From IMG/VR virus record IMGVR_UViG_3300031707_000031: a stretch of DNA of 46,554 nucleotides; one strand, written 5' to 3'. A program made the position numbers and the translations under genes. The stretch comes from a virus. The stretch's first letter is position 1. Each line of letters opens with the position of its first letter. Of the stretch, positions 1 through 46,554 are shown one piece after another. The notes under the pieces were generated by a model. The model was given only the letters and a program-made list of their open reading frames with translations, made no database searches and was not told the DNA's origin.

Positions 1-127
1 CATGAAATAACTTTAAATAGCAAGGCAATCAGCGCCTTGCAGGCTATTAATAAATAATAAATAAAACTATGAAACAAACAATCTTTAATTTACTACAAAC
101 AAGCACGGGGCAGGCTCTTTGTGATAG
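1..127. repeat. terminal direct repeat, identical to 46428-46554 (circular-assembly overlap or terminal redundancy)
   Basis: First 127 nt (catgaaataac...ctctttgtgatag) recur verbatim as the last 127 nt; unique length 46,427 bp. Confidence 0.95.
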
Positions 128-4125: not shown

Positions 4126-4126
4126 T

Positions 4127-4735: not shown

Positions 4736-4768
4736 TCCTAATAGATATTAAAAAATAACAATAAAAAA

Positions 4769-4993: not shown

Positions 4994-5009
4994 TTAATAA
5001 AAACTAATT

Positions 5010-5234: not shown

Positions 5235-5238
5235 TTAT

Positions 5239-5445: not shown

Positions 5446-5446
5446 T

Positions 5447-5605
5447 ATGAAAGACCAATTTCCAAAAACACTTTACATTGGACAGGACAGAACTGTCGGC
5501 ATTTATTATGCACAAGAGGACATTAGGTGCATTTCCGATGGTATCGTTGGGATTTATGAGCTAAAGGAGATGAAACACAAAGTTACAAAGCACGAGCTTA
5601 ATTAA
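5447..5605 (+). CDS. hypothetical small protein (52 aa, below ORF-track cut-off)
   Basis: Hand translation MKDQFPKTLYIGQDRTVGIYYAQED...TKHELN*; starts 2 nt after the previous stop. Confidence 0.4.
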   Translation: MKDQFPKTLYIGQDRTVGIYYAQEDIRCISDGIVGIYELKEMKHKVTKHELN

Positions 5606-5642
5606 TTAAATCCCGTTTGCCAAACAAACAGGATAAAACAAC

Positions 5643-6131
5643 ATGCCAAAAGAAAACGAACAGTTTAGCGAGAACAACATCCCTAAAAGCAATTGGATGA
5701 AATTCGATGTCGTGGGAAATTCCATTATTGGAACTTTCCTTTCCAAAGCCATTAAACCAGCCAACGGCGACTATCCCGCTCAAATGGTTTATACGGTTTT
5801 CAACGCCATCATCAATGATAAGCAACAGGAGTCAGGCGATGAGTGGAATTTTGGAGCAGCCATTCGGGAAGGCAACGCTAATTTCATCAATAACAAATTC
5901 GCCAAGGTTAAGCCTGGCACACGCATCGGCTTAAAGTTTATGAAAGAAATCCCACCGAAGAAAAAAGGCTTTCACCCTGCCAAGTCTTACATGCCGAATG
6001 TCTTTTTAGAAGATGGACAGCCGAAAATCGACCCGCTATTTAATCAACTCTATGGCGAGAACTTTAATACCGATGATGCCGTAAAAGCGGAAGACGGTGA
6101 ATTGTCCGTAGAAAGCGTTCCCTTCAATTAA
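5643..6131 (+). CDS. hypothetical protein, possibly ssDNA-binding (162 aa)
   Basis: The acidic C-terminal tail ...AEDGELSVESVPFN resembles SSB-type tails. This is weak positional and compositional inference only. Confidence 0.3.
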   Translation: MPKENEQFSENNIPKSNWMKFDVVGNSIIGTFLSKAIKPANGDYPAQMVYTVFNAIINDKQQESGDEWNFGAAIREGNANFINNKFAKVKPGTRIGLKFMKEIPPKKKGFHPAKSYMPNVFLEDGQPKIDPLFNQLYGENFNTDDAVKAEDGELSVESVPFN

Positions 6132-6240
6132 ATTAAGACAGCAAGGATTAATTCCTTGCTCGGCGGAAGCGGTAAGCTGCGGCTTACTCCGAATGTTTAC
6201 TTCATAGTTTTATTCGGCCGTCGATTAAGGAATTAATAAT

Positions 6241-6573
6241 ATGAAAAAGAAAAATAAACTAGCCTATGTTCGGGTAATTGATAAGGTCAGATTGCCAGAA
6301 AAATATCATAAAGGAAAAAAGCTGATGAATGCGGAACGTCAAGAAGTCTGCAAACTTTATGCGACTGGTGATTATACTTACAGAGCCTTAGCGGAATACT
6401 TCGGCGTTTCTTATGGCGTCATTCAGGTTATAATTAATCCGAATGCCAAGAAGTGCCAGGCTGCGGCTGGAAAACGCTGGCGATTGAAAACTGGCTATAA
6501 ACCAGACACCGATTGTATGGAGTTAAGAAGACGCAAAAAAGCAATGATAATGCATGGATTAATAACGATATGA
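6241..6573 (+). CDS. HTH DNA-binding protein (110 aa)
   Basis: ERQEVCKLYATGDYTYRALAEYFGVSYGVIQVI matches the helix-turn-helix pattern. Confidence 0.5.
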   Translation: MKKKNKLAYVRVIDKVRLPEKYHKGKKLMNAERQEVCKLYATGDYTYRALAEYFGVSYGVIQVIINPNAKKCQAAAGKRWRLKTGYKPDTDCMELRRRKKAMIMHGLITI

Positions 6574-6797
6574 AAATAACTAAAATCTTTATACAAAAAA
6601 GTAAGACGGTGGAAACTTCTGGCTTGCTCGGAAAGGACGCTTACCGCAAAATAACTATCGGCAGCGAGTGCGAAGTGAACGACGGAGAAGATGCCGTGGC
6701 CGCCAAAGACGAGTTGATTGCGTTTGTAGATTTGGCACTTTTAATTGAGGTGGATAAATTTAATAAAGAGGTCAAAGAAAGACATAAAGGGATTTAA
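6570..6797 (+). CDS. hypothetical protein (75 aa)
   Basis: ATG at 6570 overlaps the previous stop (ATGA); the ORF-track start at 6513 lies inside the upstream gene. Confidence 0.45.
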   Translation: MKITKIFIQKSKTVETSGLLGKDAYRKITIGSECEVNDGEDAVAAKDELIAFVDLALLIEVDKFNKEVKERHKGI

Positions 6798-6801
6798 CGC
6801 T

Positions 6802-7575
6802 ATGAATAAAGCTAATTATTTTTCCGCAAAAAACAAGTATTTGTCCTCATCCAAAATAAAGGACTGGCTGAAAGGCAAGGAGTATTTTAAAAAGCTGCAC
6901 ATCACGCATTCTATTAAGCGTGAAGTGACGGATGCACTTATTATCGGTAGCGCGTGCGATTGCTGGCTTACCCGAAGCGAGCGGACATTCCGCAAGAAAT
7001 ACGAAGTTGTCAGTCGCAGGGCAACTGACAATCCGAATTACGAGCTTCAGCTAAACGACACTATGCTCAAAAAGGTTGAAGCTATCTGCCGTTCGGTGGT
7101 CAAAACCCAGGCGTATAAAGACATCCGCAAGCAGAAATACAAGAGCCAGAAAATACTTATTAAGCCTATGAAGGGATTGGGACGTTGGAAAGGTGCGTGT
7201 GGGATTCCTGATTGGTTTAAAATTAAGGAAGACGGAACGTGCGTCATTATAGATTTAAAAACGACTCAGGACGCCTCGCCGAAGAAATACTTTTTCTTTG
7301 CGATGGAGTACGGCTACTTCTTGCAAGCCGCTATGTATCGCATCCTCTTGCAATATAAATATCCGCAGATAAAATCTTTTCTGAACTTACATTTGGTGGT
7401 CGAAAAAGACACCGACGGCATCAATGACGTTTATACTTACGAACTGGCGAATCAGCTTGTCGAAGAGAATATTGCGCTAATCAATGATTTGATTTGCGCA
7501 ATAGTCTCGGAACGAGACTATTTACCGAAGCCTGCGACGTGGGAAGACAGACTAGTAATCGGAGAAATGCTATGA
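6802..7575 (+). CDS. PD-(D/E)XK nuclease (RecB / lambda-Exo / Cas4-like recombination exonuclease)
   Basis: Start at ATG 6802. GIPDWF ... IIDLKT ... QAAMY gives the D...(D/E)xK plus QxxxY signature. Confidence 0.65.
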   Translation: MNKANYFSAKNKYLSSSKIKDWLKGKEYFKKLHITHSIKREVTDALIIGSACDCWLTRSERTFRKKYEVVSRRATDNPNYELQLNDTMLKKVEAICRSVVKTQAYKDIRKQKYKSQKILIKPMKGLGRWKGACGIPDWFKIKEDGTCVIIDLKTTQDASPKKYFFFAMEYGYFLQAAMYRILLQYKYPQIKSFLNLHLVVEKDTDGINDVYTYELANQLVEENIALINDLICAIVSERDYLPKPATWEDRLVIGEML

Positions 7576-7700
7576 AAGAAGCCATAATCATCTTACTTAC
7601 AATCTTTATTCTATTCTTGTTTCCAGCACTTTTCTGGCTGGCGATTAAGATTTTTGCTGTTCTGGTTGTGGTTTCGTTGCTATGTGATTTAATAAATTAA
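7572..7700 (+). CDS. small membrane protein (42 aa)
   Basis: ATGA overlap with the upstream stop; MKEAIIILLTIFILFLFPALFWLAIKIFAVLVVVSLL is hydrophobic throughout. Confidence 0.4.
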   Translation: MKEAIIILLTIFILFLFPALFWLAIKIFAVLVVVSLLCDLIN

Positions 7701-7710
7701 ATAAAAATAT

Positions 7711-8214
7711 ATGAGAGAAATTAAATTCAGGGCTTGGGACAACAAGAAAAAAGAATGGCTATTAGGATATAATTATAAAAGCCTTGGCGGTTTTAGTTTA
7801 TTTGGAGAGTGTATATTGCTTGGAGAGTGGGGACACATTCTTGATGAATTTATTTTAAGAAGAAGCTCTGATGATTTAAAGGTAATGCAATATACAGGGC
7901 TAAAAGACAAGAACGGTAAGGAAGTTTATGAAGGAGATATTATCAAAAAACAATACAAAGATAAGCCTTATTCGGAGAAAGCAAAAACAAAAGAAATATT
8001 ATCAGAAGTTGTTTGGCGAGAAGGATGCAATGTTCAAAATAACGACTTCAATAATAAAACATTGAAAAAAGACCCATCTGCATTTAACGAAGAGCCTTGT
8101 TTCGGTGTTAAAAGAATAACGAAAGAAAATAATTTTTATTGTTGCAATTGGTCTGGTTTTTCAGGGTGCGAAGTAATCGGCAATATTTATGAAAATACTG
8201 AACTACTTAAATAG
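7711..8214 (+). CDS. YopX-family protein
   Basis: N-terminus MREIKFRAWD and C-terminus VIGNIYENTELLK are the hallmarks of the YopX family. Confidence 0.7.
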   Translation: MREIKFRAWDNKKKEWLLGYNYKSLGGFSLFGECILLGEWGHILDEFILRRSSDDLKVMQYTGLKDKNGKEVYEGDIIKKQYKDKPYSEKAKTKEILSEVVWREGCNVQNNDFNNKTLKKDPSAFNEEPCFGVKRITKENNFYCCNWSGFSGCEVIGNIYENTELLK

Positions 8215-8260
8215 TTTCCTTTAACCTTGGAAGTAAATTATTAACTAATAAAAATGTTTT

Positions 8261-8416
8261 ATGAAACCAAACAAATATGGATGTAAGGTCTCAGATGATG
8301 TATGCGTAATGCACGATGAACCATTGGTTTGCAAGCACGGATGCACTCACTCTAAATGCAACTGCAAGGAATATGTTGAAAATATGGTTAGCTTAAATAA
8401 TGAAAAGGACAAATAG
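8261..8416 (+). CDS. small Cys-rich protein (51 aa)
   Basis: Hand translation MKPNKYGCKVSDDVCVMHDEPLVCKHGCTHSKCNCKEY...; preceded by the repeated cassette ACTAATAAAAATGTTTT-ATGAAA. Confidence 0.4.
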   Translation: MKPNKYGCKVSDDVCVMHDEPLVCKHGCTHSKCNCKEYVENMVSLNNEKDK

Positions 8417-8467
8417 TTCCCAGCATCCTCAAGGTTTAAGTAAATTATTAACTAATAAAAATGTTTT

Positions 8468-8830
8468 ATGAAAAAAGTAGATGAAGTAGTGATTAACGGG
8501 GTGGCTTATACCCCAAAGACCAATCAAAAAGCCGAAGAATTAGATGGACTAAAGTATGTCATCGTCCGCACTTATTCGGCTGGCGTGTTCGCAGGTTATT
8601 TAGAAAGCAAAAACGGTCAAGAAGTAGTAATGAGAAAAGCACGCCGACTTTATTATTGGGATGGTGCTTTTACTCTTTCTCAAATCGCCAATGACGGTGT
8701 TTCTAAGCCTGAAAATTGCAAGTTCCCTGCCGAAGTAGACAGGATTGAACTTTTACAGGCGATAGAAATAATTGATGCCACAGAGAAGTGTAAAGAATCA
8801 ATAACTAATGTAAAAGTTTATGAATTCTAA
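8468..8830 (+). CDS. hypothetical protein (120 aa)
   Basis: Same repeated upstream cassette; no family assigned. Confidence 0.55.
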   Translation: MKKVDEVVINGVAYTPKTNQKAEELDGLKYVIVRTYSAGVFAGYLESKNGQEVVMRKARRLYYWDGAFTLSQIANDGVSKPENCKFPAEVDRIELLQAIEIIDATEKCKESITNVKVYEF

Positions 8831-9000
8831 TATTATTACTGAAGAAGAAATGAGAGGCGATGGCTCTGGCTCTGGCTATGGCTATGGCGATGGCTCTGGC
8901 TAAAATGTAAAAGTTTATGAATTCTAATATTATTACTGAGGAAGAAATGAGAGGCGATGGCTCTGGCTCTGGCTATGGCTATGGCGATGGCTCTGGCTAT
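8807..9000. repeat. 97-bp tandem duplication (2 copies, 1 mismatch)
   Basis: 8807-8903 and 8904-9000 are identical except a/g (actgaAgaag vs actgaGgaag). Each copy spans the 3' end of the upstream gene plus the 5' end of the Gly-rich gene. Confidence 0.9.
8820..8902 (+). CDS. truncated 27-aa copy of the Gly-Ser-Tyr-Asp repeat protein, created by the duplication
   Basis: MNSNIITEEEMRGDGSGSGYGYGDGSG*; the stop codon is created at the duplication junction. Confidence 0.3.
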
Positions 9001-9138
9001 GGCGATGGCGATGGCTCTGGCTATGGCTATGGCGATGGCTCTGGCTATGGCGATGGCTCTGGCTCTGGCGATGGCGATGGCTCTGGCTATGGCTCTGGCT
9101 ATGGCTATGGCTCTGGCTATGGCTATGGCTTTGGCTAA
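8917..9138 (+). CDS. low-complexity Gly-Ser-Tyr-Asp repeat protein (73 aa)
   Basis: MNSNIITEEEMRG followed by (G-[SYD])n; encoded by the hexanucleotide-periodic tract GGCNNN at 8953-9135. Confidence 0.5.
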   Translation: MNSNIITEEEMRGDGSGSGYGYGDGSGYGDGDGSGYGYGDGSGYGDGSGSGDGDGSGYGSGYGYGSGYGYGFG

Positions 9139-9303
9139 ATAGTTCCCAGTCTTACTAACTAATAAAAATGTTTTATGAAAGTAAGAGCTTATTTAAGAAT
9201 TTCAAATGCAAGAAGCAGAGTATGAGGAAGCAGAGTATTTGGCGAAGATGCTCAGAACGGCTTTTAGAAATTATAAAAAAGAGATACTTAAAAAATAAAC
9301 TCT

Positions 9304-9543
9304 ATGCAAGACTGGAAGAAACGATTAGAAAAAGTCTTAGTGAATGATGTTTGGCTATGGAAAAATAATGATGAAGTTCTTAACATCACACCTGTTATCG
9401 CCTTTATCGAAGAATTATTGGAAGAAAAAGACTTTATTATTTCAGCATTAGAAAGTTCTGAAGAAACACTGGAAGATGCCAATGAAAAACTTGCCAAAGA
9501 ACTGAATGCAAAGATAAAACTGCCGTGGAGTATTAGAAAATAA
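9304..9543 (+). CDS. hypothetical acidic protein (79 aa)
   Basis: Co-oriented ORF. The antisense ORF at 9288-9497 is rejected as a shadow. Confidence 0.5.
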   Translation: MQDWKKRLEKVLVNDVWLWKNNDEVLNITPVIAFIEELLEEKDFIISALESSEETLEDANEKLAKELNAKIKLPWSIRK

Positions 9544-9622
9544 TAATAAATAAATATGAAGAATAAAAACTTAAGCGATGACTATTGTAAATTAGCGAGG
9601 GAGAGGTTAAAAAAATTTTAAT

Positions 9623-10753
9623 ATGGAAAACAAACAAGAAGTTTTAGGTCAATATTTTACAAAAATTGAAATTGTAAAAAATTTGGTAAATTTAGTTTTA
9701 TCGTACACGCACTACAAAAATAACATAAAAATACTTGAACCATCTTTTGGGACTGGAAATTTTATCAAAGTACTCAAAGAAAATGGATTTTTAAATATCG
9801 ATGGGTGTGAAATAGACGAGGAGTTAACCACAGAACCGTCGGATTTTTTCAATATGCCTTTTGGCAAAAAATACGACCTAATTATTGGCAACCCGCCGTT
9901 TAGCAAATACAATTTAAAAGAAAGCTATTTTGACATAAAAAAATATCTCCTGTCGAACGCCTTATCTCCTATTTTCCTAACAAAAAAAGAATTAACGAAG
10001 GAGAAGGAAAAAATTGAGAATATTTTTATACTCAAAAGTTTAAAACATTTAGCGGACAAAGAATCTTCACTTGGTTTTGTTTTGCCAATTTCATTTTTTA
10101 TAAAAAATCGAAATAAATCTGTAAAGGATGAGTTATTGAAATATTTTTCAACAATTATTATTTATCAAAATGATAAAGTTTGGTTTGATAAGAATATCCC
10201 CTGTTGTTTTACTGTCTTTACCAATTCAGGAGAGCTAAAAAACAAAATTATTTTGCTATACGAAAATGGTAAGAAAAACGAAGAAGTATTTGATATAAAA
10301 AATATTCATGAAGAATTAATTCCGCAGGTAGTTTTTCATAAGAATAACGGATATATAAAAAACGACAAGGGAACGCCTTTACTGGAATTTTTTGAAGCAA
10401 AGAAGGTTAACGTCCAAAAATCATACAAAGAAAACAATATCTCGGCAAAAAATATTCTTGAAAAAAATGAAATACCAAAAAATAAACCGATTGAAAATTA
10501 TAAAATTGCCGTAGTGAGGGTTGGCAATTCTAGCGTCGGGAAGTGCGGTCTAATAAACGAGAGGGAAGATATTTTAAATGATATGTTTTACATCTTTGAT
10601 GTAAAACATCAATACGCTAAAGACAAACAATTTAAAGAAAATATTTGTCGCCAAATAAATAAAAATATTGATTATTTTAGAAATATAACTTGCCGGGTTG
10701 GAAGCAAATCAATTAAGAGAGAAGATGTATACAACTTTAAAGTTAGCATTTAG
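9623..10753 (+). CDS. N6-adenine DNA methyltransferase (TaqI/Eco57I-like, motif I before motif IV), orphan
   Basis: GQYFT, EPSFGTGNF (FxGxG, AdoMet binding) and IIGNPPF (NPPF catalytic) motifs. No restriction partner is adjacent, and the gene looks more AT-rich than its neighbours. Confidence 0.8.
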   Translation: MENKQEVLGQYFTKIEIVKNLVNLVLSYTHYKNNIKILEPSFGTGNFIKVLKENGFLNIDGCEIDEELTTEPSDFFNMPFGKKYDLIIGNPPFSKYNLKESYFDIKKYLLSNALSPIFLTKKELTKEKEKIENIFILKSLKHLADKESSLGFVLPISFFIKNRNKSVKDELLKYFSTIIIYQNDKVWFDKNIPCCFTVFTNSGELKNKIILLYENGKKNEEVFDIKNIHEELIPQVVFHKNNGYIKNDKGTPLLEFFEAKKVNVQKSYKENNISAKNILEKNEIPKNKPIENYKIAVVRVGNSSVGKCGLINEREDILNDMFYIFDVKHQYAKDKQFKENICRQINKNIDYFRNITCRVGSKSIKREDVYNFKVSI

Positions 10754-10833
10754 GAGCTTATTTCATTAAAGACTCGTGCCTTGAGGCGGTAAGGCGTTTA
10801 AATAACATCGTTTAATTAATTTAAATATCAACG

Positions 10834-10855
10834 CTGTCTGCCAAAAAGCAGATAG
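10834..10855 (+). promoter_or_regulatory. conserved RNA hairpin CUGUCUGC-CAAAAA-GCAGAUAG, copy 1
   Basis: 8-bp stem with one G.U, 15 nt upstream of ATG 10871. The same stem occurs in gene-sense orientation on the other strand at 31884-31901. Confidence 0.5.
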
Positions 10856-10870
10856 TGTAAAAATGCTAAC

Positions 10871-11212
10871 ATGAAAATCACAATGAAAAACGGCACTGTC
10901 ATTGACTGCGACAGTTCTGAAATCAAAAACTTAGTCCCTTTCTTGAAAGGTAAAATCAAGGAGACAGCTTCGTCCACCGAACTGCCGCCGAAAAAGCACA
11001 AGAAACATCAGATTTGGAGACCGTGGACAGGCGAAGAGCTGAATATTATCGCCAATAATTTGGCTCTAAAGCAGCGCGAAGTCAGCTCCAAACTCCCGCT
11101 CCGCACCACTGGCGCAGTCGGGAACATTATGTGGGCGATGAGGAATGGTCGCTTGGACAAGGGAAAGCAAAGAACTCTCGACAACTATAAATTAACAGAG
11201 CCACAATTCTAA
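10871..11212 (+). CDS. hypothetical protein (113 aa)
   Basis: ORF abutting the helicase gene (TAATG overlap). Confidence 0.55.
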   Translation: MKITMKNGTVIDCDSSEIKNLVPFLKGKIKETASSTELPPKKHKKHQIWRPWTGEELNIIANNLALKQREVSSKLPLRTTGAVGNIMWAMRNGRLDKGKQRTLDNYKLTEPQF

Positions 11213-12396
11213 TGCCATTATACGCACACCAGCAAAAATTGATTGACCTTAACCCAAGTAAGTATTTACTTTCTTGGGGAACAGGAACTGGCAAAACGCT
11301 GGCGGCTATTACTTTGGCTAAGCAAAATAATCAGCGAGCGTTGGTTATCTGCCCTAAGTCTTTAATCGACCAATGGCGCGAACAAGTTCCGGCCGATTGG
11401 CTGGTGCTAAGTAAAGAGCAGTTTAAGAAAAACTATAAAACAATCGGCAGTTACGCCTGCATTATCGCCGATGAATTTCACTATTTCGGCAACTATAAGT
11501 CGCAACTTACTAAGGCGTTATTAGCCTATATAAAAACTTACCGCCCTGAATTTATATATGGACTCACGGCGACTCCGTATATGTCAACTTCCTACAATCT
11601 GTACACTTACGGCTTAATATTCGGCAAGGCTTGGGATTGGTATAAGTGGACAATGCGTTATTTTAGCCGTGTTAAAATGGGTAGCCGAGCAATTTTTGTG
11701 CAAAAGAAAGAAGTTGACGGCGTGCCGATAGCGAAAGAAATGGCTAGGCTGGTAAATGTTTTAGGCAATACTGTTGCTTTGGAAGACTGCTTTGATGTCC
11801 CTGAGCAAATATTTGAAGTCGAGTCTTTTGACCTGACCGCTGAACAGAAAAAAGCGATTAAAGACAGTTTTGACCCGCTGCCGATTGTCCGCTTTTCTAA
11901 GGAATCGCAAATTTGCGGGGGAAGTTTACTCGGCGATGCTTATACCGAAAGTCAGTATTTTAAATCAGAGAAATTAAATCGGGTCGTTGACCTGATTGCC
12001 GAACATAAAAAGATTATTGTCGTTTGCCATTATAACAATGAGATTGACGTGATTGCCAGCAAGGTTAAGGATAAAAAAGTTTATATTATAAGAGGCGACG
12101 TCAAGAACCGCTCGGAAGTAGTCAAAGAAGCGGAGGCGGATGATAATTGCGTGGTCTTAGTAAATGCTGCCTGCTCGGAAGGATATGAGCTTCCCAGTTT
12201 CCCGATTATGGTCTTTTACTCGTATGGCTGGAGCTTAAAAAATTATATTCAGATGATGGGTCGTATTCAGCGGGCGGGACATATTAAAAAGAACGTTTAT
12301 CTTTCCTTGGTAGTGAAAGGAACTGTCGATGAAGATATTTATAAAACAGTTGCTATAAAAAAAGCCGATTTCCAAATCGAGCTTTATAAAAAATAA
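11212..12396 (+). CDS. superfamily 2 (DEAD/SNF2-like) helicase
   Basis: Walker A GTGTGKT, motif II DEFH, motif III TATP, motif VI QMMGRIQRAG. Confidence 0.8.
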   Translation: MPLYAHQQKLIDLNPSKYLLSWGTGTGKTLAAITLAKQNNQRALVICPKSLIDQWREQVPADWLVLSKEQFKKNYKTIGSYACIIADEFHYFGNYKSQLTKALLAYIKTYRPEFIYGLTATPYMSTSYNLYTYGLIFGKAWDWYKWTMRYFSRVKMGSRAIFVQKKEVDGVPIAKEMARLVNVLGNTVALEDCFDVPEQIFEVESFDLTAEQKKAIKDSFDPLPIVRFSKESQICGGSLLGDAYTESQYFKSEKLNRVVDLIAEHKKIIVVCHYNNEIDVIASKVKDKKVYIIRGDVKNRSEVVKEAEADDNCVVLVNAACSEGYELPSFPIMVFYSYGWSLKNYIQMMGRIQRAGHIKKNVYLSLVVKGTVDEDIYKTVAIKKADFQIELYKK

Positions 12397-12397
12397 T

Positions 12398-12706
12398 ATG
12401 TTTAATAAAAAATTAAAAGACAAGGTTTACGACGTGGAAATCGCTAATCAGTATATTTTTAGCGAATTAATAAAGCTGAGGTTTCTGGTAGCAGCCAATA
12501 AAAAGGAACTTGAATTTGAAGGAACATTGCTGAATCCAGTCAACACCCTTGAAAGAACTATTTTAATCACTCAGTTATTGGTTGAGTATTTAGGGCTTGA
12601 CCTGAAGGCGGAGTGGGTTGATGACCCCTGCTATCCGAAGGTTGAACAGCCGAAAAAAAGAAACTTTTATTTGGCTAAAAGAAAAAAATATGAAAAGAAA
12701 GGCTAA
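12398..12706 (+). CDS. hypothetical protein (102 aa)
   Basis: Co-oriented ORF starting 2 nt after the helicase stop. Confidence 0.5.
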   Translation: MFNKKLKDKVYDVEIANQYIFSELIKLRFLVAANKKELEFEGTLLNPVNTLERTILITQLLVEYLGLDLKAEWVDDPCYPKVEQPKKRNFYLAKRKKYEKKG

Positions 12707-12908
12707 AAATCTCCTCCAAAAAGAAATATCCGACCTGGCATCCCGTTGGCGGCCAGTGTTAGGCAACGCCGACGATATTGAGATTATGCGCCTAGCGGCT
12801 AATCACGATGCCGACAGTTTAGCGCGGCAGTTAGCTTTATTAATTAAACGGGTGACGGTGGATAAAGCGACTAGGTTGTCCACCGAAAACACAGGTTATC
12901 CACAATAA
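12690..12908 (+). CDS. hypothetical protein (72 aa)
   Basis: First ATG of the frame that does not lie deep inside the upstream gene (MKRKAKNLLQ...). Confidence 0.4.
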   Translation: MKRKAKNLLQKEISDLASRWRPVLGNADDIEIMRLAANHDADSLARQLALLIKRVTVDKATRLSTENTGYPQ

Positions 12909-12909
12909 T

Positions 12910-13302
12910 ATGAAGGAGAAAGACATGCAAACTCTCTTCGGTCACTGGCTTAAAGCTAACTGGTTTGAGACGTCGGCTTTTGAATTAAAAATCTGTAAAG
13001 AAAAACTGTTCAACTTAAAGAAGATTGAACAGCATCAGCTTGAAAATTTGAATTTAGTCAGGAACGGACTATTTTATTATAAGATTGCCGACGAAGGATT
13101 CGCTCAGAAGCCTTTCGACTGTATTACTCTTTACCAGAGACAGGCTTACGTCGTGGTTTTATTCTATGAACCACGCAAGCCGAAGAGATTTTATATGATA
13201 CCAATTAAGGTGATAAAAGACCTGATTTCGCAAAACATTAAGAGTATTGACGAAAAACGAGCCTTCACAATCGCCGTAGAGAGTGAAATTCTGAAGAATT
13301 GA
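12910..13302 (+). CDS. putative RecU-like / PD-(D/E)XK Holliday-junction-type nuclease
   Basis: AFELKICKEKLFNLKKIEQHQLENL resembles the RecU F(D/E)xK....HQ...L core, but the upstream acidic residue is not evident. Confidence 0.4.
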   Translation: MKEKDMQTLFGHWLKANWFETSAFELKICKEKLFNLKKIEQHQLENLNLVRNGLFYYKIADEGFAQKPFDCITLYQRQAYVVVLFYEPRKPKRFYMIPIKVIKDLISQNIKSIDEKRAFTIAVESEILKN

Positions 13303-34124: not shown

Positions 34125-34900
34125 TCAGGCACTTCCGTCACCCTTCGAAAGTTTCAGCCAAACGCCAGATACTGTGCAGATTCCGTAACCACATCTGACC
34201 CCAAATTGCCAATCGTCGGTGCTAAATTCATCTCCGTTATTTCCTTCAGACGGACTTTTCAATCTCGGCTCTTCAGCGACGCCAAGATAAAGAGAAGAAT
34301 TAGCCGAAGACGCTAAACCCCAATAATATCTCTTTGTCGAATCTACCGCTCCTGCCGCAGTTGTGGCGACACGAGGAAGAATGACGTGGCGATATTTGGA
34401 TTTATAAACGTTGACAACATTTGAATTCATACCAGTAAGGTCGGCAGTGGATTGCAGATACTCTTTGGCAGTGTTGACGGTGTTCGGGTCGTCAGTTGTC
34501 CAGAGAATATCGAATTCCATTACCATCTTTTCACCAAATTGGTTCAAAGTCTCTTCAGCAACGAGTCTCTCCATTCCCTCTAACGCACCCTTAGATAACT
34601 TCGGGTTATTAGCAAGAATGTTGCGATAAGTTGCGGTTGTTCCTCTCAAATAGTGACCAGTGGAGGCCAAGCAAAGAGTATCGCCAGTTGCAATATCAAT
34701 TGTGTTGGAATCCATATCGGTATAAGTAGTTGCTGTTGCGAAGGTTAAGCGATGAGACAAATCTAAATCCATTCTGCGTGCAGCTTGAGCGGCATTGCCA
34801 GTCAAGCGAGCAACAACTTCAGGATATTTATTCTGTGTTCTCATTTCATAGGTGATTCCGATGTCCATAGCAACACGTTTTATTGTCATGGTCTTGCTAT
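34125..34900 (-). CDS. major capsid protein, exon 3 (C-terminal 258 codons plus 2 nt)
   Basis: The frame stays open upstream of M34889 (..SKTMTIKRVAMDIGITYEM...). Position after scaffold and decoration genes. It possibly resembles the Mu gpT head-subunit family, from memory and unverified. Confidence 0.7.
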
Positions 34901-34927
34901 CAAATTTGTTACTATTTCTTACTGAAT

Positions 34928-34956
34928 TTGACTATTTTATGTCATAGTGTTAGAAT
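34928..34956 (+). promoter_or_regulatory. early-type promoter TTGACT-17 nt-TAGAAT driving the antisense HNH gene
   Basis: TTGACT at 34928-34933 and TAGAAT at 34951-34956. The ATG at 34964 lies 8 nt after the -10, so the mRNA is leaderless or nearly so. Confidence 0.55.
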
Positions 34957-34963
34957 TAACACT

Positions 34964-35425
34964 ATGAAATTATATAAAAATCGTGATTGGCTCTATACGA
35001 TGTATGTTGATAAAGATTTAAGTCAGCGAGAAATTGCTAAATTATGTGACATAAATCAATCAATAATACATCGTGCTTTGGTTAGGTTCAGCATCCCAAG
35101 AAGGAAGTTCTGCGGTCGTTCAGGAATCCATTGTCATCTTTATAAAGGGGGAAAGTCCAGAACTACCCAAGGATATATACACATCCTTTTAAAGGGTCAC
35201 CCTCGGACTAATTGCAAAAACTATGTTCCTGAGCAAGTCCTTGTCGTAGAAAAGCATCTTGGTCGTTATCTTTCTAAAGAAAATGCAATCCACCATATCA
35301 ACGAAATTAAGGACGACAATCGGATAGAAAATCTTTATTTATTTCCGTCCGAGTCAGAACATCAGCGTTATCATCAGAAATTTAGAAAGGGAACGATGCC
35401 GTTAATCACTAAGTCAAATTTGTAA
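34964..35425 (+). CDS. HNH homing endonuclease (HNH_3-like, 153 aa) with an N-terminal HTH
   Basis: AIHHINEIKDDNRIENLYLFPSESEHQRYH is the HNH motif, and LSQREIAKLCDINQSIIHRAL is an HTH. The ORF-track start at 34883 overlaps capsid exon 3 and is rejected. Confidence 0.8.
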   Translation: MKLYKNRDWLYTMYVDKDLSQREIAKLCDINQSIIHRALVRFSIPRRKFCGRSGIHCHLYKGGKSRTTQGYIHILLKGHPRTNCKNYVPEQVLVVEKHLGRYLSKENAIHHINEIKDDNRIENLYLFPSESEHQRYHQKFRKGTMPLITKSNL

Positions 35426-35431
35426 GGAACG

Positions 35432-35453
35432 ATGAGACTACTTCGAGTCTCAT
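35432..35453 (+). terminator. hairpin ATGAGACT-6 nt-AGTCTCAT just after the HNH stop
   Basis: 8-bp perfect stem 7 nt after TAA (35423-35425), followed by tcaccagTTTCTTCTT. It could equally be an intron stem on the minus strand. Confidence 0.4.
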
Positions 35454-35627
35454 TCACCAGTTTCTTCTTGTTATGGCTGGTGTTCAGACTATTACATCCG
35501 CCGACTTTCGGCGGTCTTTTCGGTTAGTCGTTGTTGCTGCACGCTTACGCTGCTTGCAAGGCGTTGTCCACTGCTGGGTTTTCGCCGTAGATTAGAAAAG
35601 ATTTTATAAGGACTATAGCACTTGTCA

Positions 35628-35843
35628 ATCCTTGCTGAACTTTTGCTCTTTCGGCTTGAGAGCCTTCGCCCTTAGCCTTAGCATACTCTTCGGAATCTAT
35701 TTCGCTAAATTCACGAGTGTTGCCGCTGTTTTGAGGTATCGGATATTCCTTTACCAAGCCAGAACCACGCATAACCTGTGCGACACTGGCATAAGCTTTT
35801 AGCCAAATGACGGACGCAAGTTTTACGAAGTCATTCAGACTAA
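35628..35843 (-). CDS. major capsid protein, exon 2
   Basis: Encodes (F)SLNDFVKLASVIWLKAYASVAQVMRGSGLVKEYPIPQNSGNTREFSEIDSEEYAKAKGEGSQAERAKVQQG. The 3' end is well supported, but the 5' end depends on the intron-1 model. Confidence 0.55.
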
Positions 35844-36539
35844 CTGTATTAAGTTCGATATAATTAGTAATTACTTAATAATACTAATGGTATGTTAACT
35901 GGTATGATTTTACTATGCTTTTTCAGATTACATCGCAGACATAATGGTTGAATGTTCCCGATATTATTGTCCCCACCTTTACTCAGAGGAATAATATGGT
36001 CTTCGGTTAGATAAGGAGTTCTTTGTCCAATAAATGGTTCGGACTTCCCACACATCAAACATCGATAATTATTAATGCGTTTCAATTCGTTCCACTGCGT
36101 GACGGTATGAGAACTTGTCAATGATACTGCCCTAAGCCGATGATTACGCTGCTTCTTCTGCCAAGAAATATATCCGTTCTCTAAACATCGGCCATCTTTA
36201 AAGAAATGACTCTTTTCTCCAGTATGTGCATCAATAATTGATTGGCGATGTTCTTTGGAAAGAGTATGCCCAAGAGCAAGAGAGTTGCCAGTCATCAATA
36301 TTTTTAGTTCCCTCTTTCGTTCTTCTGTGTGTATTGGTACACCGATTTTTTTTGCTCTTATCTTGTTTACGGTTGCTGCCGAATATCTTCTACAAGCCCC
36401 AGAACAAAAAGTCCTTCCATTACGTATTTCGTACGCCCACGCAACGAATTCTTTTCCACATGTTCTACATTTCAAAGTACTCTTCCCCGTTCCTCTTTTT
36501 GCATAAATCATAACTATTAATATACCATTAGTTATTATT
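35844..36539 (-). mobile_element. candidate group I intron or HEG insertion (696 nt) at the extreme 5' end of the capsid gene
   Basis: UAUGU (36544-36540) pairs with GUAUA (36525-36521), and ACUAA (36532-36528) pairs with UUAGU (35843-35839); G at 35844. This is the same 14-nt-loop architecture as the other intron, but P1 is weak and the ORF fills about 93% of the insert. Confidence 0.35.
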
Positions 36540-36568
36540 ACATAATTGTAAATTATGTTTACTGCCAT
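35864..36568 (-). CDS. HNH homing endonuclease with zinc-ribbon and NUMOD3-like motifs (215-234 aa)
   Basis: TEDHIIPLSKGGDNNIGNIQPLCLRCNLKKH is a classic HNH motif. CRTCGKEF...CSGAC and GHTLSKEHRQSIIDAHTG are the other two motifs. An alternative start is ATG 36511. Confidence 0.8.
   Translation of the reverse strand: MAVNIIYNYVIITNGILIVMIYAKRGTGKSTLKCRTCGKEFVAWAYEIRNGRTFCSGACRRYSAATVNKIRAKKIGVPIHTEERKRELKILMTGNSLALGHTLSKEHRQSIIDAHTGEKSHFFKDGRCLENGYISWQKKQRNHRLRAVSLTSSHTVTQWNELKRINNYRCLMCGKSEPFIGQRTPYLTEDHIIPLSKGGDNNIGNIQPLCLRCNLKKHSKIIPVNIPLVLLSNY
36540..36543 (-). CDS. major capsid protein, proposed exon 1 coding part (AUG plus U)
   Basis: Joining 36540 to 35843 gives AUG UUU AGU CUG AAU GAC, i.e. 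MFSLNDF, in frame. The AT-rich context (cataatttacaattATG) resembles other late starts. Confidence 0.3.
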
Positions 36569-36625
36569 GACACTGATTGTTTAGGCCATACGCTGTTCCT
36601 AGTAAACTTAAATTAATTATTATTT

Positions 36626-37072
36626 TTAAGAATTTGCTTTTAATCTGGCATCAGTACCAACGTTCAAGATGAAAAGACCCTTGGTTGTGCTAATAAATTT
36701 AACGCATTGCACAATGTGGTAAGTGGAAGCACTCTGGTCAACGCCAGTACCATCGTCAGCAGTGGTCAAGTTAAAATATAAGCCGACAGAAGTTGTTGCC
36801 AGTGTGCCAACAGCGACTGGGGCTTCCCAAATAACATTCTTTTCCACAGGTACTTCAATCGGAACTAAGCGAGCAACTGCATAATCGGAATCAGCCGTTG
36901 TGATTGCCTTTCTGATTACACCAACCATATCGTAGTTATTGGCAGTATTTGTAGCAGGAATCAAAACTCCGCTAGAATAAGCCATTAATGCACCGTTTGT
37001 TACCGCTCCAGCAGAGGCAGCAACAGGAAGATACATTATTTTTGTCTTTCCTTCTTTGCGAATAAACGCCAT
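36626..37072 (-). CDS. putative head decoration / capsid accessory protein (148 aa)
   Basis: Small beta-rich protein directly upstream of the capsid gene, starting MAFIRKEGK. An alternative start is MYLPVAAS at 37036. The call is positional inference. Confidence 0.35.
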   Translation of the reverse strand: MAFIRKEGKTKIMYLPVAASAGAVTNGALMAYSSGVLIPATNTANNYDMVGVIRKAITTADSDYAVARLVPIEVPVEKNVIWEAPVAVGTLATTSVGLYFNLTTADDGTGVDQSASTYHIVQCVKFISTTKGLFILNVGTDARLKANS

Positions 37073-43190: not shown

Positions 43191-43682
43191 GGCGTAAAAG
43201 CGATTAGCCTGCGAGAGAACGAGGAGAGAACGAGCGTTCTCTCATAGGCAAAAACTAATATGAAAACTACGATGCCGTCTCACCGCAGCGAGACAGTATA
43301 TCGCAGGCTAATAGCTCTACACTTAAAATGTTATAAAAACACTTCCAGCTCCACCGAAAAGCATCAACCACCACCCAGCGGCTTTTAACGGCAGCTTGAA
43401 CAGTAATAAACGCTACTTCGGAAGATGTGGCAGGGTTATTATTCTTTTCTAAAATGTCGGGGTGATGTTATTCGCCTGATGGCGAACAACATTTTAGAAA
43501 AGAAGCTAATGCGGTATAGCATACGATGTTTTACCCTATTCGCTTTAGCTCTTTTGTTGGTATCGTCAATCTGTTAGATTGGCGATTTCTCTATTCCGCT
43601 GCAATATCCTATGCGGGGACTCCTCATGAGACGAGCTGTCTGAGCCGCCGACAAGGGGAATTGAAGGAGAACTGTCCTGTTA
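43191..43682 (-). ncRNA. candidate structured leader / non-coding RNA upstream of the terminase block
   Basis: No ORF longer than about 18 codons on the minus strand. Contains a 12-bp long-range pairing (43203-43214 with 43301-43312) enclosing two hairpins, plus a 62-nt nested hairpin at 43443-43504. A promoter-like element lies at 43689-43718. Confidence 0.3.
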
Positions 43683-43688
43683 ATAAGT

Positions 43689-43718
43689 ATTATACCATGC
43701 CCCGAACCTTCGATGCAA
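43689..43718 (-). promoter_or_regulatory. candidate promoter TTGCAT-18 nt-TATAAT (minus strand)
   Basis: The -35 is at 43718-43713 and the -10 TATAAT at 43694-43689, just downstream of the HNH-like gene stop. Confidence 0.4.
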
Positions 43719-43725
43719 CAGCTTT

Positions 43726-43938
43726 TTATTTTTTGTCAAGAGTGCCTGAACAAGCCGAGCAAACGGTAATAAGGTTGTTGGGGTCATTGGCGGATAAATG
43801 AGCGTCTTTGCGCTGGACAATAAGAGATGCCTCATCGCCCACCTTACCGCAAAAATAACACTTAAAATTATCAGCACTTAAAATGGCGAGTTTTTGAGAC
43901 ATGCTAAGGCGTGTGTCTTCGTTGGTAGTTTTTTTCAT
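43726..43938 (-). CDS. small HNH-like (beta-beta-alpha-Me, Cys4) protein (70 aa)
   Basis: CYFCGK...LIVQRKDAHLSANDPNNLITVCSACS: a CxxC pair, His, Asn and a second CxxC with HNH-like spacing, but a degenerate match. Confidence 0.4.
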   Translation of the reverse strand: MKKTTNEDTRLSMSQKLAILSADNFKCYFCGKVGDEASLIVQRKDAHLSANDPNNLITVCSACSGTLDKK

Positions 43939-43971
43939 AATTTTTTATTTAATTAAATTAATTATATTGTT

Positions 43972-44000
43972 ATTATACATTAAACAACTCAATATGTCAA
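43972..44000 (-). promoter_or_regulatory. perfect-consensus sigma70 promoter TTGACA-17 nt-TATAAT heading the minus-strand arm
   Basis: Minus strand: TTGACA at 44000-43995, spacer tattgagttgtttaatg, TATAAT at 43977-43972. The ATG at 43938 lies 33 nt downstream of the -10. Confidence 0.7.
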
Positions 44001-44194
44001 GGGAGACCTTTTTTTAGAATTCTGCGGGGAAGAGAGATAAGGATATTCTCCGTTGGTATTCAGCCCCCACCCCCCCCTATTTTTATCTAATATTAGCTAA
44101 TTAATACACATACTAAAAACATCAAAGGCTAACATTAAATAAAAATAAATACATAAAAATATGTGATTGGCTAATGTTAGCATAGCACATTAAT

Positions 44195-44228
44195 AATACT
44201 TCGCTTAATATAGATTAAGCGAAGTATT
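44195..44228. other. perfect 15-bp hairpin AATACTTCGCTTAAT-ATAG-ATTAAGCGAAGTATT
   Basis: Read directly. Confidence 0.9.
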
Positions 44229-44355
44229 GAATGGCTAATATAAGTACACAATAACAGCATGCGAATCAGGCACGGCACAATCACGCCGACATTTATTTAT
44301 ATTTTTGTCAATTATTTTTCTTTTTCAGGCGTACGCCTAAGCGATAACCCCGCTT

Positions 44356-44445
44356 ATTGGTAGTACTCTGTTATCAAGCCAGCCAATTGGTAGTACTCTG
44401 TTATCAAGCCAGCCAATTGGTAGTACTCTGTTATCAAGCCAGCCA
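44356..44445. repeat. three exact tandem 30-bp iterons (ATTGGTAGTACTCTGTTATCAAGCCAGCCA)
   Basis: Read directly; followed by a partial unit (ATCGCCAGCCA) and by ACAATC-containing repeats up to about 44510. Confidence 0.95.
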
Positions 44446-44576
44446 ATCGCCAGCCATCCTGACTGCCTTACAATCGGAATCCCGACACAATCACCAGCCG
44501 ACAATCCCGAACGCAAGGTAGCCGAATTTTTACCCCGCTTTTTATCCCCGAGTTCGTAAAAGCCGAAAACTCATGA

Positions 44577-44703
44577 CTTAACAACTTAACAAATAGCCTT
44601 GAACTATATATATATATTACAGTTTATTAACCCTTGATTCTATTGGGTTATATTTTCCTTATATATATATACTTTAAAATTGTTAAGTTGTTAAGTTGTT
44701 AAG
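44577..44703. repeat. inverted arrays CTTAACAA(C) x2 and TTGTTAAG x3 flanking two (TA)n tracts
   Basis: CTTAACAACTTAACAA at 44577-44592, (TA)6T at 44605-44617, (AT)5A at 44661-44671 and TTGTTAAG x3 at 44680-44703. Confidence 0.9.
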
Positions 44704-44738
44704 CCAAAAGGCTTCGCCTACCGCTAATATTAGCCAAA

Positions 44739-44832
44739 CTTAACAACAGCTTAACAACAGCTTAACAATCTCATAAAAGAGCTTAAACGTCAACTAGATA
44801 ACCAATTGTCTAGTTGTTAAGCTGTTGTTAAG
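44739..44832. repeat. 19-bp perfect inverted repeat built from the same TTAACAAC units, with an inner 8-bp palindrome
   Basis: CTTAACAACAGCTTAACAA, first copy at 44739-44757 with an overlapping second copy at 44750-44768, faces TTGTTAAGCTGTTGTTAAG at 44814-44832. The inner palindrome is CAACTAGA (44791-44798) with TCTAGTTG (44809-44816). Confidence 0.9.
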
Positions 44833-44917
44833 CCAAAACGCCTTGCCTGGTGCTAATATTCGCAAAAAGGGTGTTTTTTTATTGCTAATGTTAGCGAAGA
44901 AAAAAAAACATTTTTTA

Positions 44918-44946
44918 TTGACAACTTGTCAAGTTTATTATATTTA
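44918..44946 (+). promoter_or_regulatory. early promoter candidate TTGACA-(15-17 nt)-TATATT/TATTTA
   Basis: TTGACA at 44918-44923. It shares the block AAGTTTATT with the next promoter-like unit. Confidence 0.45.
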
Positions 44947-44952
44947 ATTTTA

Positions 44953-44981
44953 TTGACAATCTATTAAGTTTATTGTATCCA
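44953..44981 (+). promoter_or_regulatory. early promoter candidate TTGACA-17 nt-TATCCA (weak -10)
   Basis: TTGACA at 44953-44958; paralogous to the 44918 unit (TTATTGACAA...AAGTTTATT.TAT). Confidence 0.35.
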
Positions 44982-45048
44982 ATTTTTTAGTTATCCACAT
45001 TTTAATATTGATATTAAAATAGCAATATAGCCTAATAAACACGCCCTC

Positions 45049-45077
45049 TTGACACCCTTAATTATCTATGCTAGTAT
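45049..45077 (+). promoter_or_regulatory. early promoter TTGACA-17 nt-TAGTAT
   Basis: TTGACA at 45049-45054 and TAGTAT at 45072-45077. Confidence 0.6.
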
Positions 45078-45111
45078 TAATACTATGATAGATAAATAAC
45101 CGCAAAACAAG

Positions 45112-45140
45112 TTTGCTATGGCAAACAGGCTTGCTAGTAT
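45112..45140 (+). promoter_or_regulatory. early promoter candidate TTTGCT-17 nt-TAGTAT
   Basis: The -10 block GCTAGTATTAATA is repeated from the 45049 promoter; ATG 45162 lies 21 nt downstream. Confidence 0.45.
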
Positions 45141-45161
45141 TAATAACTAACATTAAACACT

Positions 45162-45311
45162 ATGGACACATTATTAAAAACAATAGCAATTATACTAATA
45201 GCAATCGGCTTAATTGCCCTGGCTATCCTTTGGCATCCCTTCATTATCCTTTACCTTCTTGTCGGCGGGGTTATGCTTTATAGATACGCCAATGGCGATG
45301 ATTTATTTTAA
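45162..45311 (+). CDS. small membrane protein (49 aa, below ORF-track cut-off)
   Basis: Hand translation MDTLLKTIAIILIAIGLIALAILWHPFIILYLLVGGVMLYRYANGDDLF*. Confidence 0.4.
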   Translation: MDTLLKTIAIILIAIGLIALAILWHPFIILYLLVGGVMLYRYANGDDLF

Positions 45312-45368
45312 TTAATAACAATAAAACACTAGGAGACCATTTTTACAAATTAATTAATTAATAAATTT

Positions 45369-45602
45369 ATGAAAAGAAAAGTCTATTATATTACTTATTG
45401 CAACGGCGATGACTTTCAAAAAGGTATTATTCATTATTCAGAGCCTTTTAAAAACAAGGCTGATGCTATTGCCTTTGAAGACAAAATAAACAAATACGAA
45501 GCGATGAACTCGCGCCTTGAATTGCACAATGAAATTTTTGAATGCAACGAATGGCGGCCAGATTTTGACCTGGGCGATACTTGGCTTAAAATAATTAATT
45601 AA
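45369..45602 (+). CDS. hypothetical early protein (77 aa)
   Basis: TAATTAATTAATAAATTT-ATGAAA junction. Confidence 0.55.
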   Translation: MKRKVYYITYCNGDDFQKGIIHYSEPFKNKADAIAFEDKINKYEAMNSRLELHNEIFECNEWRPDFDLGDTWLKIIN

Positions 45603-45612
45603 TAATAAATTT

Positions 45613-45831
45613 ATGAAAAAACTTAATAAAATTTTGGCAAGGGAAATTAAAGAAAACACTATGTTAACGCTTAATCAAATTTTTACCGACTTAATCAGGG
45701 AAAAGATGACTGATAAACAGTTCTGGACTTATGTTGCAAGCTGGAAGGATGCAAGCGACGTTTGTGATGAAATGGAAGGCTGGGATGATGAAGAGAAAAA
45801 GGAAGCAATAAAAGACATTAATAAATTATAA
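45613..45831 (+). CDS. hypothetical early protein (72 aa)
   Basis: TAATTAATTAATAATAAATTT-ATGAAA junction. Confidence 0.55.
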   Translation: MKKLNKILAREIKENTMLTLNQIFTDLIREKMTDKQFWTYVASWKDASDVCDEMEGWDDEEKKEAIKDINKL

Positions 45832-45849
45832 TAAACTAACCATAAAACT

Positions 45850-46200
45850 ATGAAAAGCACAAAAACAAAGCTAATCAATTTTTTAAACGCCGAAGATTTT
45901 GGCGAAGAAGTATTTAATGATTATTATGGTGAAGGCAATCGCGCCGGATATATGATTGACTTAAAAAAGTTTAATGAAACAAAAACAGACGCGGCCAATC
46001 TCTTGTCAGAATTAGGCAAGATAAGCGATGAAGAGATAAAAGAGGCTTGCGAGCGTGCTTTTTGTGGCCGTTTAGAATTTGATGGTAATAACTTCCATTA
46101 TACTGCTGGCCAATTCTATAATATTGAAATACCGCAAGCCGTCTTAGCTGTTGCCTGGTTTATTCAAAGCGCAAGAGACCAAGAGAATAGCCTTAATTAA
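45850..46200 (+). CDS. hypothetical early protein (116 aa)
   Basis: Co-oriented ORF with an A-rich, SD-less start context. Confidence 0.55.
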   Translation: MKSTKTKLINFLNAEDFGEEVFNDYYGEGNRAGYMIDLKKFNETKTDAANLLSELGKISDEEIKEACERAFCGRLEFDGNNFHYTAGQFYNIEIPQAVLAVAWFIQSARDQENSLN

Positions 46201-46214
46201 CTAACTAAAAAACT

Positions 46215-46484
46215 ATGAACTATCAAATCACGTGGAGCGATTTACAAACAGAGAAGCGCGAGAAAAGACGCGAAGCGATAATTGAAATGGTGTCAAGCGC
46301 CATCCTGATAATCTTAATTGCTTTATTCTTGATTGCCTTGATAGGCGGATACTTTAGCCCGGGCTTAGTCAATGCTCAAGACTTAAACGCGCGCGCCGTC
46401 AATTATCTTTATGAAATGGACATGCGCCATGAAATAACTTTAAATAGCAAGGCAATCAGCGCCTTGCAGGCTATTAATAAATAA
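46215..46484 (+). CDS. hypothetical early protein with one transmembrane segment (89 aa)
   Basis: Hydrophobic segment VSSAILIILIALFLIALIGGYF. The 3' end lies in the terminal repeat, so the gene is continuous with the window start. Confidence 0.55.
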   Translation: MNYQITWSDLQTEKREKRREAIIEMVSSAILIILIALFLIALIGGYFSPGLVNAQDLNARAVNYLYEMDMRHEITLNSKAISALQAINK

Positions 46485-46554
46485 TAAATAAAACTATGAA
46501 ACAAACAATCTTTAATTTACTACAAACAAGCACGGGGCAGGCTCTTTGTGATAG
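46428..46554. repeat. terminal direct repeat, identical to 1-127
   Basis: See feature 1-127. The partial ORF starting at 46496 is the same gene as 69-740. Confidence 0.95.

Follow-up and report, generated by a model that had tools for sequence, protein, structure and literature searches.

Endonucleases encoded within introns must be expressed without disturbing the splicing or the translation of the gene that they occupy. To our knowledge, the only solution studied in phages is that of T4, which combines sense orientation, late promoters and hairpins at the start site. The T4 intron endonuclease genes have private promoters and hairpins covering their starts, the 5′ arm of which is missing from the gene's own transcript, with an operator similar to the homing site lying across the promoter (PMC2988022). 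Antisense endonuclease genes in group I introns are uncommon, as a first-pass annotation of the locus studied here had supposed, and have published precedents in LittleE (PMC3706429) and I-DirII (PMC3073962). The searched passages of the report on mycobacteriophage LittleE (Pope et al. 2013, PMC3706429) describe a capsid-gene intron whose endonuclease, gp14, is encoded on the opposite strand and whose splicing was demonstrated by reverse transcription PCR; those passages neither mention gp14 expression nor contain an analysis of promoter, start site or structural placement. In the corresponding annotation (JF937101), gene 13 is joined on the plus strand and gene 14 lies on the minus strand (9064-9597). 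In Didymium iridis, the intron Dir.S956-2 carries the antisense gene of I-DirII with an RNA polymerase II promoter of its own (Johansen et al. 2006, as summarized in passages of PMC3073962 and PMC3679873). The words antisense, opposite, promoter and orientation are absent from a review of bacterial group I introns (PMC3984707). Here we analyzed a 46,554-nucleotide stretch of viral DNA (IMG/VR record IMGVR_UViG_3300031707_000031, hereafter the window) in which the major capsid gene is interrupted by a predicted group I intron bearing a helix-turn-helix (HTH) + HNH_3 homing endonuclease gene in reverse orientation. The explanation that we consider likely is that of a mobile intron carrying a reversed, self-contained expression cassette in the loop of its P9.2 hairpin.

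Comparison of the window with a 97%-identical IMG/VR record (G001) revealed two inserts, A (34901-35627, 727 nt) and B (about 35860-36569). The major capsid gene of G001 is uninterrupted, codes for 335 amino acids and lacks insert A exactly, confirming that the HNH_3 gene interrupts the capsid gene in the window. The insertion point lies within the Tyr codon that follows Gln-Gln-Gly. Joining of the two exons, with AAGGAU-AUAGCAAG as the predicted ligated junction, yields an in-frame protein of 335 amino acids, the length encoded by the uninterrupted gene, of which 330 are identical to those of G001. DNA identity with G001 is 75-90% in exon 1 and over the opening ~15 nt of exon 2, and 97-100% in distal exon 2; two of the ~77 exon 1 codons differ from G001, one of them at the start-codon position, and the Tyr codon at the junction is unchanged. 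This tract of synonymous differences beside the insertion site suggests a co-conversion footprint of homing from a diverged donor, to which insert B may also have contributed. A presence/absence polymorphism at a fixed site and an apparent flanking conversion tract were found together for the HNH_3 element, which is missing from G001.

Insert A exhibits the anatomy of a group I intron. The internal guide can be read directly from its sequence: GUCCUU (35613-35608) pairs with AAGGAU of exon 1 (35633-35628), giving a P1 helix that has the canonical U.G at the splice site, and GCUAU pairs with AUAGC, the first 5 nt of exon 2 (34900-34896), to form P10. Related capsid-gene introns were recovered by pattern scans of viral contigs; we refer to these related viral and metagenome loci by L-numbers. 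In L047 and L040, P1 is re-formed with different letters. The family falls into two core subtypes. We imposed a P1-P9.1 model including the P3/P7 pseudoknot on an alignment (A1) of six related uninterrupted cores. In this model 87.4% of the A1 cells were paired, compared to 36-43% with slid partners, and none of 500 shuffles reached the observed value. A total of 27 core pairs changed on both sides, six of the seven P3 pairs were compensatory, and P7 and P9 were 100% paired in this six-sequence alignment. The Rfam model Intron_gpI (RF00028) gave no match in the window at its gathering score, nor at E≤10 on 34700-36700, and was likewise silent on three relatives with uninterrupted cores. Since the model misses the uninterrupted cores of the whole intron family, its silence says little about the window's intron, and for the same reason we relied on comparative structure. 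On this basis the window's major capsid gene contains a predicted group I intron, which is expected to self-splice with guanosine.

The endonuclease gene lies in the loop of P9.2, the intron's last hairpin. Relatives devoid of an open reading frame (ORF) in the 3′ region display P9.1, a short P9.2 hairpin and UAACAA..UUG, followed by the 3′ splice site. In the window's intron, the arms of P9.2 enclose a loop of ~480 nt that contains the endonuclease ORF on the plus strand, the capsid gene and the intron being on the minus strand, which bears out the opposite orientation first noticed. The minimum-energy fold of the 3′ domain contains 23 long-range P9.2 pairs in the window's intron, 34 in L005 and 19 in L007. 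In both L005 and L007, some of the P9.2 pairs are G.U when read in the sense of the intron; on the opposite strand they would become C.A mismatches, indicating that the helix serves the intron RNA. The gene also lies backwards in P9.2 in L005/L006 (58% amino acid identity), in L007 (49%) and in L051 (46%), whose intron occupies a different insertion site in the capsid gene. The L050 gene (79% identity) is also backwards, on a contig that does not include the upstream region.

Several lines of evidence indicate that this 153-codon gene codes for an HTH + HNH_3 homing endonuclease. Its product matches the Pfam domain HNH_3 (35 bits against a cut-off of 24.8, E = 1.1e-8) and, at full length (residues 1-142), phrog_7545 (E = 6e-26). 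The motif HHINEIKDDN..ENLYLFP..H, in which His-Asn-His is intact, is conserved, HHINEIKDDN..ENL..H being invariant in three homologs, the N-terminus MK..(D/N)WL aligns with that of homologs, and S151 and N152 are invariant. Comparison with L050 gave proportions of nonsynonymous (pN) and synonymous (pS) differences of 0.14 and 0.77, the latter being saturated, which points to strong purifying selection on the gene. No solved relative emerged when the PDB was searched by sequence at E≤1. The strand of the intron has no stop-free frame mirroring the gene; each of its frames contains 10-13 stops in the window's intron.

Upstream of the ATG, the predicted TTGACT-17 nt-TAGAAT promoter was found where the first-pass annotation had placed it; its hexamers match the sigma-70 consensus at 10 of 12 positions, and a TGn extended −10 element is also present. 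The pattern TTGACW-N17-TANNNT occurs five times in the window (1.22 expected). The narrower TTGACW-N17-TAGWAT has four occurrences where 0.04 would be expected, and all four are on the plus strand; the remaining three, at 2327, 4707 and 45049, are those that the first-pass annotation had called early promoters of the same design. Because this pattern was defined after the sites had been seen, we gave its count less weight than the comparative test. In that test, the −35, the exact 17-nt spacing and the −10 were all kept in L005/L006 (TTGACA-17-TACAGT in L005), L007 and L051 (both TTGACT-17-TATAAT), just within the intron's 3′ end and with unrelated spacer sequences. Hexamers 17±1 nt apart are therefore conserved among homologs, as in a sigma-70-type promoter. 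More broadly, TTGACN-16..18-TANNNT was present at most 110 nt upstream of 10 of the 21 full-length family members, against a rough hand estimate of ~0.01 per locus by chance. These results support a private sigma-70-type promoter that would drive the endonuclease gene, with a transcription start predicted from the position of the −10. Early expression of the gene would be in keeping with this promoter class and with the replication genes carried by the plus strand.

The first-pass annotation had also proposed a leaderless or near-leaderless mRNA, with the ATG 8 nt after the −10. The ATG begins at 34964, leaving 7 nt between the two elements, and 8 nt separate them in L005, which in both cases would place the start at or next to the A of the AUG. 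The near-leaderless spacing holds for these two introns but not for L007 and L051, in which it is 27-30 nt, so that leaderlessness appears to be a trait of a lineage and not a property of the design. The inverted repeat reported over the −10 and the ATG proved to be 11 bp long (34942-34967; −12.8 kcal/mol, z = −7.3) and stops 41 nt short of the 3′ splice site. Its counterpart in L005 has a different sequence (z = −3.95), and that of L007 is not significant; near-leaderless spacing together with a hairpin over the −10/ATG is thus kept in two of the four lineages. This hairpin may compact the intron loop; alternatively, by analogy with T4, it may mask the start codon on read-through RNA, the promoter-initiated RNA being without the 5′ arm. 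A role in the intron RNA is just as plausible for it.

At the other end of the gene, the 8-bp hairpin said to follow the stop codon is present (Table 1), although it simply coincides with P9.1 read in antisense and lacks a T-run. A terminator scan of the plus strand ranked highest the GC-rich hairpin at 35498-35524, on the antisense face of P8 and P3′. The same terminator-like feature is found in L005, L007 and L029 because P3′ is GAAAAG, and it is inherent to the whole intron family.

Table 1. Positions of the features of the capsid-gene intron and of its reversed endonuclease cassette (window coordinates, except for the last row).
Feature	Position	Strand	Remarks
Capsid exon 1	35628..35859	minus	Flanked by the two endonuclease-bearing inserts
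Capsid exon 2	34125..34900	minus	Starts AUAGCAAG; stop codon included
Group I intron (predicted), 727 nt	34901..35627	minus	U (35628) is the last exon 1 base; terminal G is 34901
Internal guide GCUAU-A-GUCCUU	35608..35619	minus	Intron bases 9-20
Ribozyme core (predicted) P3-P4-P5-P6/6a-P7-P8-P9-P9.1 with P3/P7 pseudoknot	35433..35601	minus	Supported by covariation
P9.2 5′ arm UUCCUUAC-A-AAUUUGACU	35412..35429	minus	Plus-strand face encodes the endonuclease C-terminus KSNL and stop
P9.2 3′ arm AGUCAAAUU-CA-GUAAGAAA	34915..34933	minus	The −35 hexamer is on its plus-strand face
HTH + HNH_3 homing endonuclease gene	34964..35425	plus	153 codons; antisense to the intron
Promoter (predicted)	34928..34956	plus	−35 TTGACT 34928-34933; 17-nt spacer; TGn 34948-34950; −10 TAGAAT 34951-34956
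Inverted repeat, 11 bp	34942-34952 with 34957-34967	both	Loop GAAT; covers the −10 and the ATG
Post-stop hairpin, 8 bp	35432..35453	plus	Antisense face of P9.1; no T-run
Terminator-like CCGCCGA-CTT-TCGGCGG then TCTTTTCGGT	35498..35524	plus	Antisense face of P8 and P3′
Two-gene intron L005/L039	L039 about 3403-3837; L005 3001-3480	minus (L039); plus (L005)	

Taken as a mobile intron with a reversed cassette in P9.2, the locus would function as follows. Host RNA polymerase would transcribe the cassette on the plus strand independently of the minus-strand structural operon, and probably before heavy transcription of that operon, producing an mRNA that would begin at or 1 nt before the AUG and hence be leaderless or nearly so. 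The transcript would pass antisense through P9.1, P9 and P7′, and would probably end at the GC hairpin and T-run on the antisense face of P8/P3′ (about 35520). The HNH_3 enzyme would cleave the intron-less capsid alleles of co-infecting relatives site-specifically, and repair would then copy the intron and flanking exon sequence into the cut alleles. In the capsid pre-mRNA, the P9.2 arms, the pairing of the ORF ends and the 11-bp hairpin would pack the ~500-nt insert away and keep the 3′ splice site near the ribozyme core.

Several observations weigh against this reading. The −35 hexamer appears to double as part of one P9.2 arm, where in the folding model it pairs with the codons for the invariant C-terminal Ser-Asn; since RNA pairing and coding constraint both act on this arm, conservation of the −35 is partly over-determined, and only the exactly spaced −10 is free of such an explanation. 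The distance from the −10 to the ATG is not conserved, the 27-30-nt leaders of L007 and L051 being AU-rich and devoid of a Shine-Dalgarno (SD) sequence. A perfect sigma-70 consensus at 44000-43972 may itself drive the minus-strand operon, so early and late expression cannot be read from the promoter type. Finally, searches of a phage collection with the window DNA and with the capsid protein found no match, the phage being known from metagenomes alone.

The first of these points leads to the alternative that the promoter-like motif is a by-product of the P9.2/Ser-Asn pairing combined with the commonness of TAnnnT boxes in AT-rich DNA, the gene being weakly expressed by read-through or silent and not yet decayed. 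Besides the location of the −35 within the 3′ arm of P9.2, where its sequence is reverse-complementary to the C-terminal codons, there is a precedent in T4 segD, which lies backwards between capsid genes without a promoter of its own (PMC2988022). We nevertheless regard a by-product as unlikely. The −10 stands at exactly 17 nt in all four lineages, is a perfect TATAAT in two of them and follows unrelated spacers. Moreover, L007 retains TTGACT even though its P9.2 partner is UUGAAA and the helix is imperfect there, and the free-standing family members L008 and L060, too, carry TTGACA/T...TATAAT. The strong purifying selection also speaks against a silent gene.

A further possibility, which would add to the reversed-cassette explanation and not replace it, is that the 11-bp palindrome and the spacer form an operator mimicking the exon 2 half of the homing site, thereby allowing autorepression as in I-TevI, whose operator is identical to its homing site at 15 of 20 positions (PMC2988022). 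When the 18-nt stretch that closes with the last T of the −10 is set against the 18-nt stretch of exon 2 that closes at the insertion site, 12 of 18 positions are identical in both the window and L005, which is the top or tied top score of ~766 windows in each, compared to 4 of 18 in L007. The matching blocks of promoter and exon 2 also covary (TGTCAT in the window, ATACAT in L005). However, the register used for anchoring was chosen after seeing the window's intron, which shares ancestry with L005, and in an unanchored local-alignment test p was about 0.03 for the window, a marginal value, and 0.41 for L005, which is not significant, with no signal in L007. We therefore regard the operator as an improbable addition and keep it as a lead.

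Similarly tentative is a broader proposal in which the cassette would be a two-way regulator besides being a passenger, through antisense cross-inhibition, operator autorepression and membership in a clade specialized in antisense nesting. The predicted cassette transcript runs antisense to the 3′ half of the ribozyme core (P9.1, P9, P7′, J8/7 and P8), and for this reason an early endonuclease mRNA could restrain capsid splicing; conversely, the later flood of intron RNA could silence the endonuclease. We judge this combination doubtful. The remaining alternative, that there is no intron and that a free-standing endonuclease cassette divides the capsid gene into two parts that are translated separately, as mobE does in nrdA of phage Aeh1, is suggested by an in-frame ATG of exon 2 near the junction (34889), the lack of an Rfam group I match and the neighbouring insert at 35860-36569, but is highly improbable given that P1 with its U.G, P10 and the terminal G define an in-frame junction restoring the length of the uninterrupted gene, that covariation supports a core including a pseudoknot, that the Met of this exon 2 ATG is an internal residue of the intact G001 protein, and that Rfam also misses uninterrupted cores of this intron family.

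The relatives of the window's intron place the reversed cassette in a wider context. The capsid introns of uncultured phages L029, L030-32, L036 and L040-48 have the ribozyme family and the 3′ motif GUAACAA..UUG in common with the window's intron, but their endonuclease genes are sense-oriented, with LAGLIDADG in P6 and HNH or Endonuclease_7 near P1/P2. Backwards genes were found only in HNH_3 cassettes (the window, L005/6, L007, L050 and L051). In L005, which is the same locus as L039, one intron harbors two endonuclease genes, a sense LAGLIDADG gene in P6 and a backwards HNH_3 gene in P9.2. L040 (about 830-905) and L041 possess a sense-oriented 203-amino-acid ORF without Pfam match at the P9.2 position, with a perfect TTGACA-17-TATAAT. 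L050 (contig Ga0180007_10157987) provides the closest endonuclease relative and lies in a capsid gene very like that of the window (MELNSISQSDFVKLASVIW...), yet its ribozyme core is of the other subtype, that of L005 and L007. This combination suggests that the cassette or the 3′ domain has been exchanged between intron cores.

More distant HTH + HNH_3 members (34-38% amino acid identity) occur in L061 (1453-1968), L087, L089 and L092, where they sit backwards in an open minus-strand frame of 780-850 codons; in L061 the frame is that of a terminase large subunit and includes an intein splicing domain. A TTGACA...TAnnnT motif ends 6-8 nt before the ATG in L061, L089 and L092, three of these four loci. 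These sequences suggest that the HTH + HNH_3 clade settles in antisense orientation within inteins as well as introns.

Additional observations concern the capsid gene itself. Insert B holds a minus-strand HNH/NUMOD3 gene (35864-36568) and resembles a free-standing cassette. It takes the place of the ribosome-binding region and capsid ATG of G001, the capsid frame of the window reading ...UAU AUC GAA CUU... with no ATG. Ribosomes continuing past exon 1 would terminate 83 nt into the intron, at a UAA within the GUAA tetraloop of P6a (35545-35627, minus strand). We also considered as a promoter the minus-strand sequence TTGACA-16-TAAAAT (35628-35601), which matches the consensus at 11 of 12 positions and falls exactly on the 5′ splice site and P1. 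It was judged a coincidence because TAAAAUC belongs to the conserved elements of the intron and because only in the window's intron does the −35 span the splice site; if active, this probably fortuitous sequence would yield intron RNA without P1.

The window looks like the whole ~46.5-kb genome of a phage (40% GC). Plus-strand genes form blocks at 1-13300 and 43500-46554, with products that include a primase, a helicase, an exonuclease and a methyltransferase. The minus strand has a single long block (13374-43066), in which lie the genes of the large terminase, whose matches in the phage collection are only ~25% identical, and of a portal-region protein that weakly matches a head-tail adaptor. 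None of the ~45 genes of the window has an SD sequence, their leaders being AT-rich; SD-independent initiation is thus the norm in this phage. Many gene starts are preceded by TAATTAATTAATAAA-like tracts, and the promoters are nonetheless sigma-70-like. The Bacteroidota-type −7 motif TAnnTTTG is not enriched in the window (43 occurrences, 53 expected), so that guessing a Bacteroidota host leaves the lack of SD sequences unexplained.

Since four diverged lineages keep the design and sense-oriented sister introns exist, this system lends itself to asking how an antisense position separates or links the expression of the endonuclease and the splicing of the capsid gene, whether homing is timed by convergent transcription and RNA duplexes, and how endonuclease cassettes move between introns and inteins. 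An intron family invisible to Rfam also matters for the annotation of phage capsid genes in metagenomes.

Compared to known systems, the window's intron is, as far as its sequence can tell, a well-supported new example of a rare, already described layout. LittleE, too, is a phage whose major capsid gene is interrupted by a group I intron, with the endonuclease gene annotated on the other strand; gp14 is unrelated in sequence to the endonuclease described here (BLASTP E = 2.6), and host and phage are unrelated as well. According to the passages cited above, the Didymium element belongs to eukaryotic nuclear ribosomal DNA and combines a His-Cys box enzyme with an RNA polymerase II promoter, a spliceosomal intron and poly(A). 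The window's element, by contrast, lies in a phage protein-coding gene, has a predicted bacterial promoter of sigma-70 type, codes for an HNH_3 enzyme and may be expressed from a leaderless mRNA. The T4 genes are sense-oriented, have phage middle/late promoters and SD sequences, and achieve late expression from within early genes, whereas the gene of the window is antisense, lacks an SD sequence, has a host-type promoter and occupies a structural gene. The window's intron and its relatives would thus represent a compact second solution next to that of T4, in which the gene is reversed in the last hairpin loop, provided with a host-type promoter and perhaps translated without a leader.

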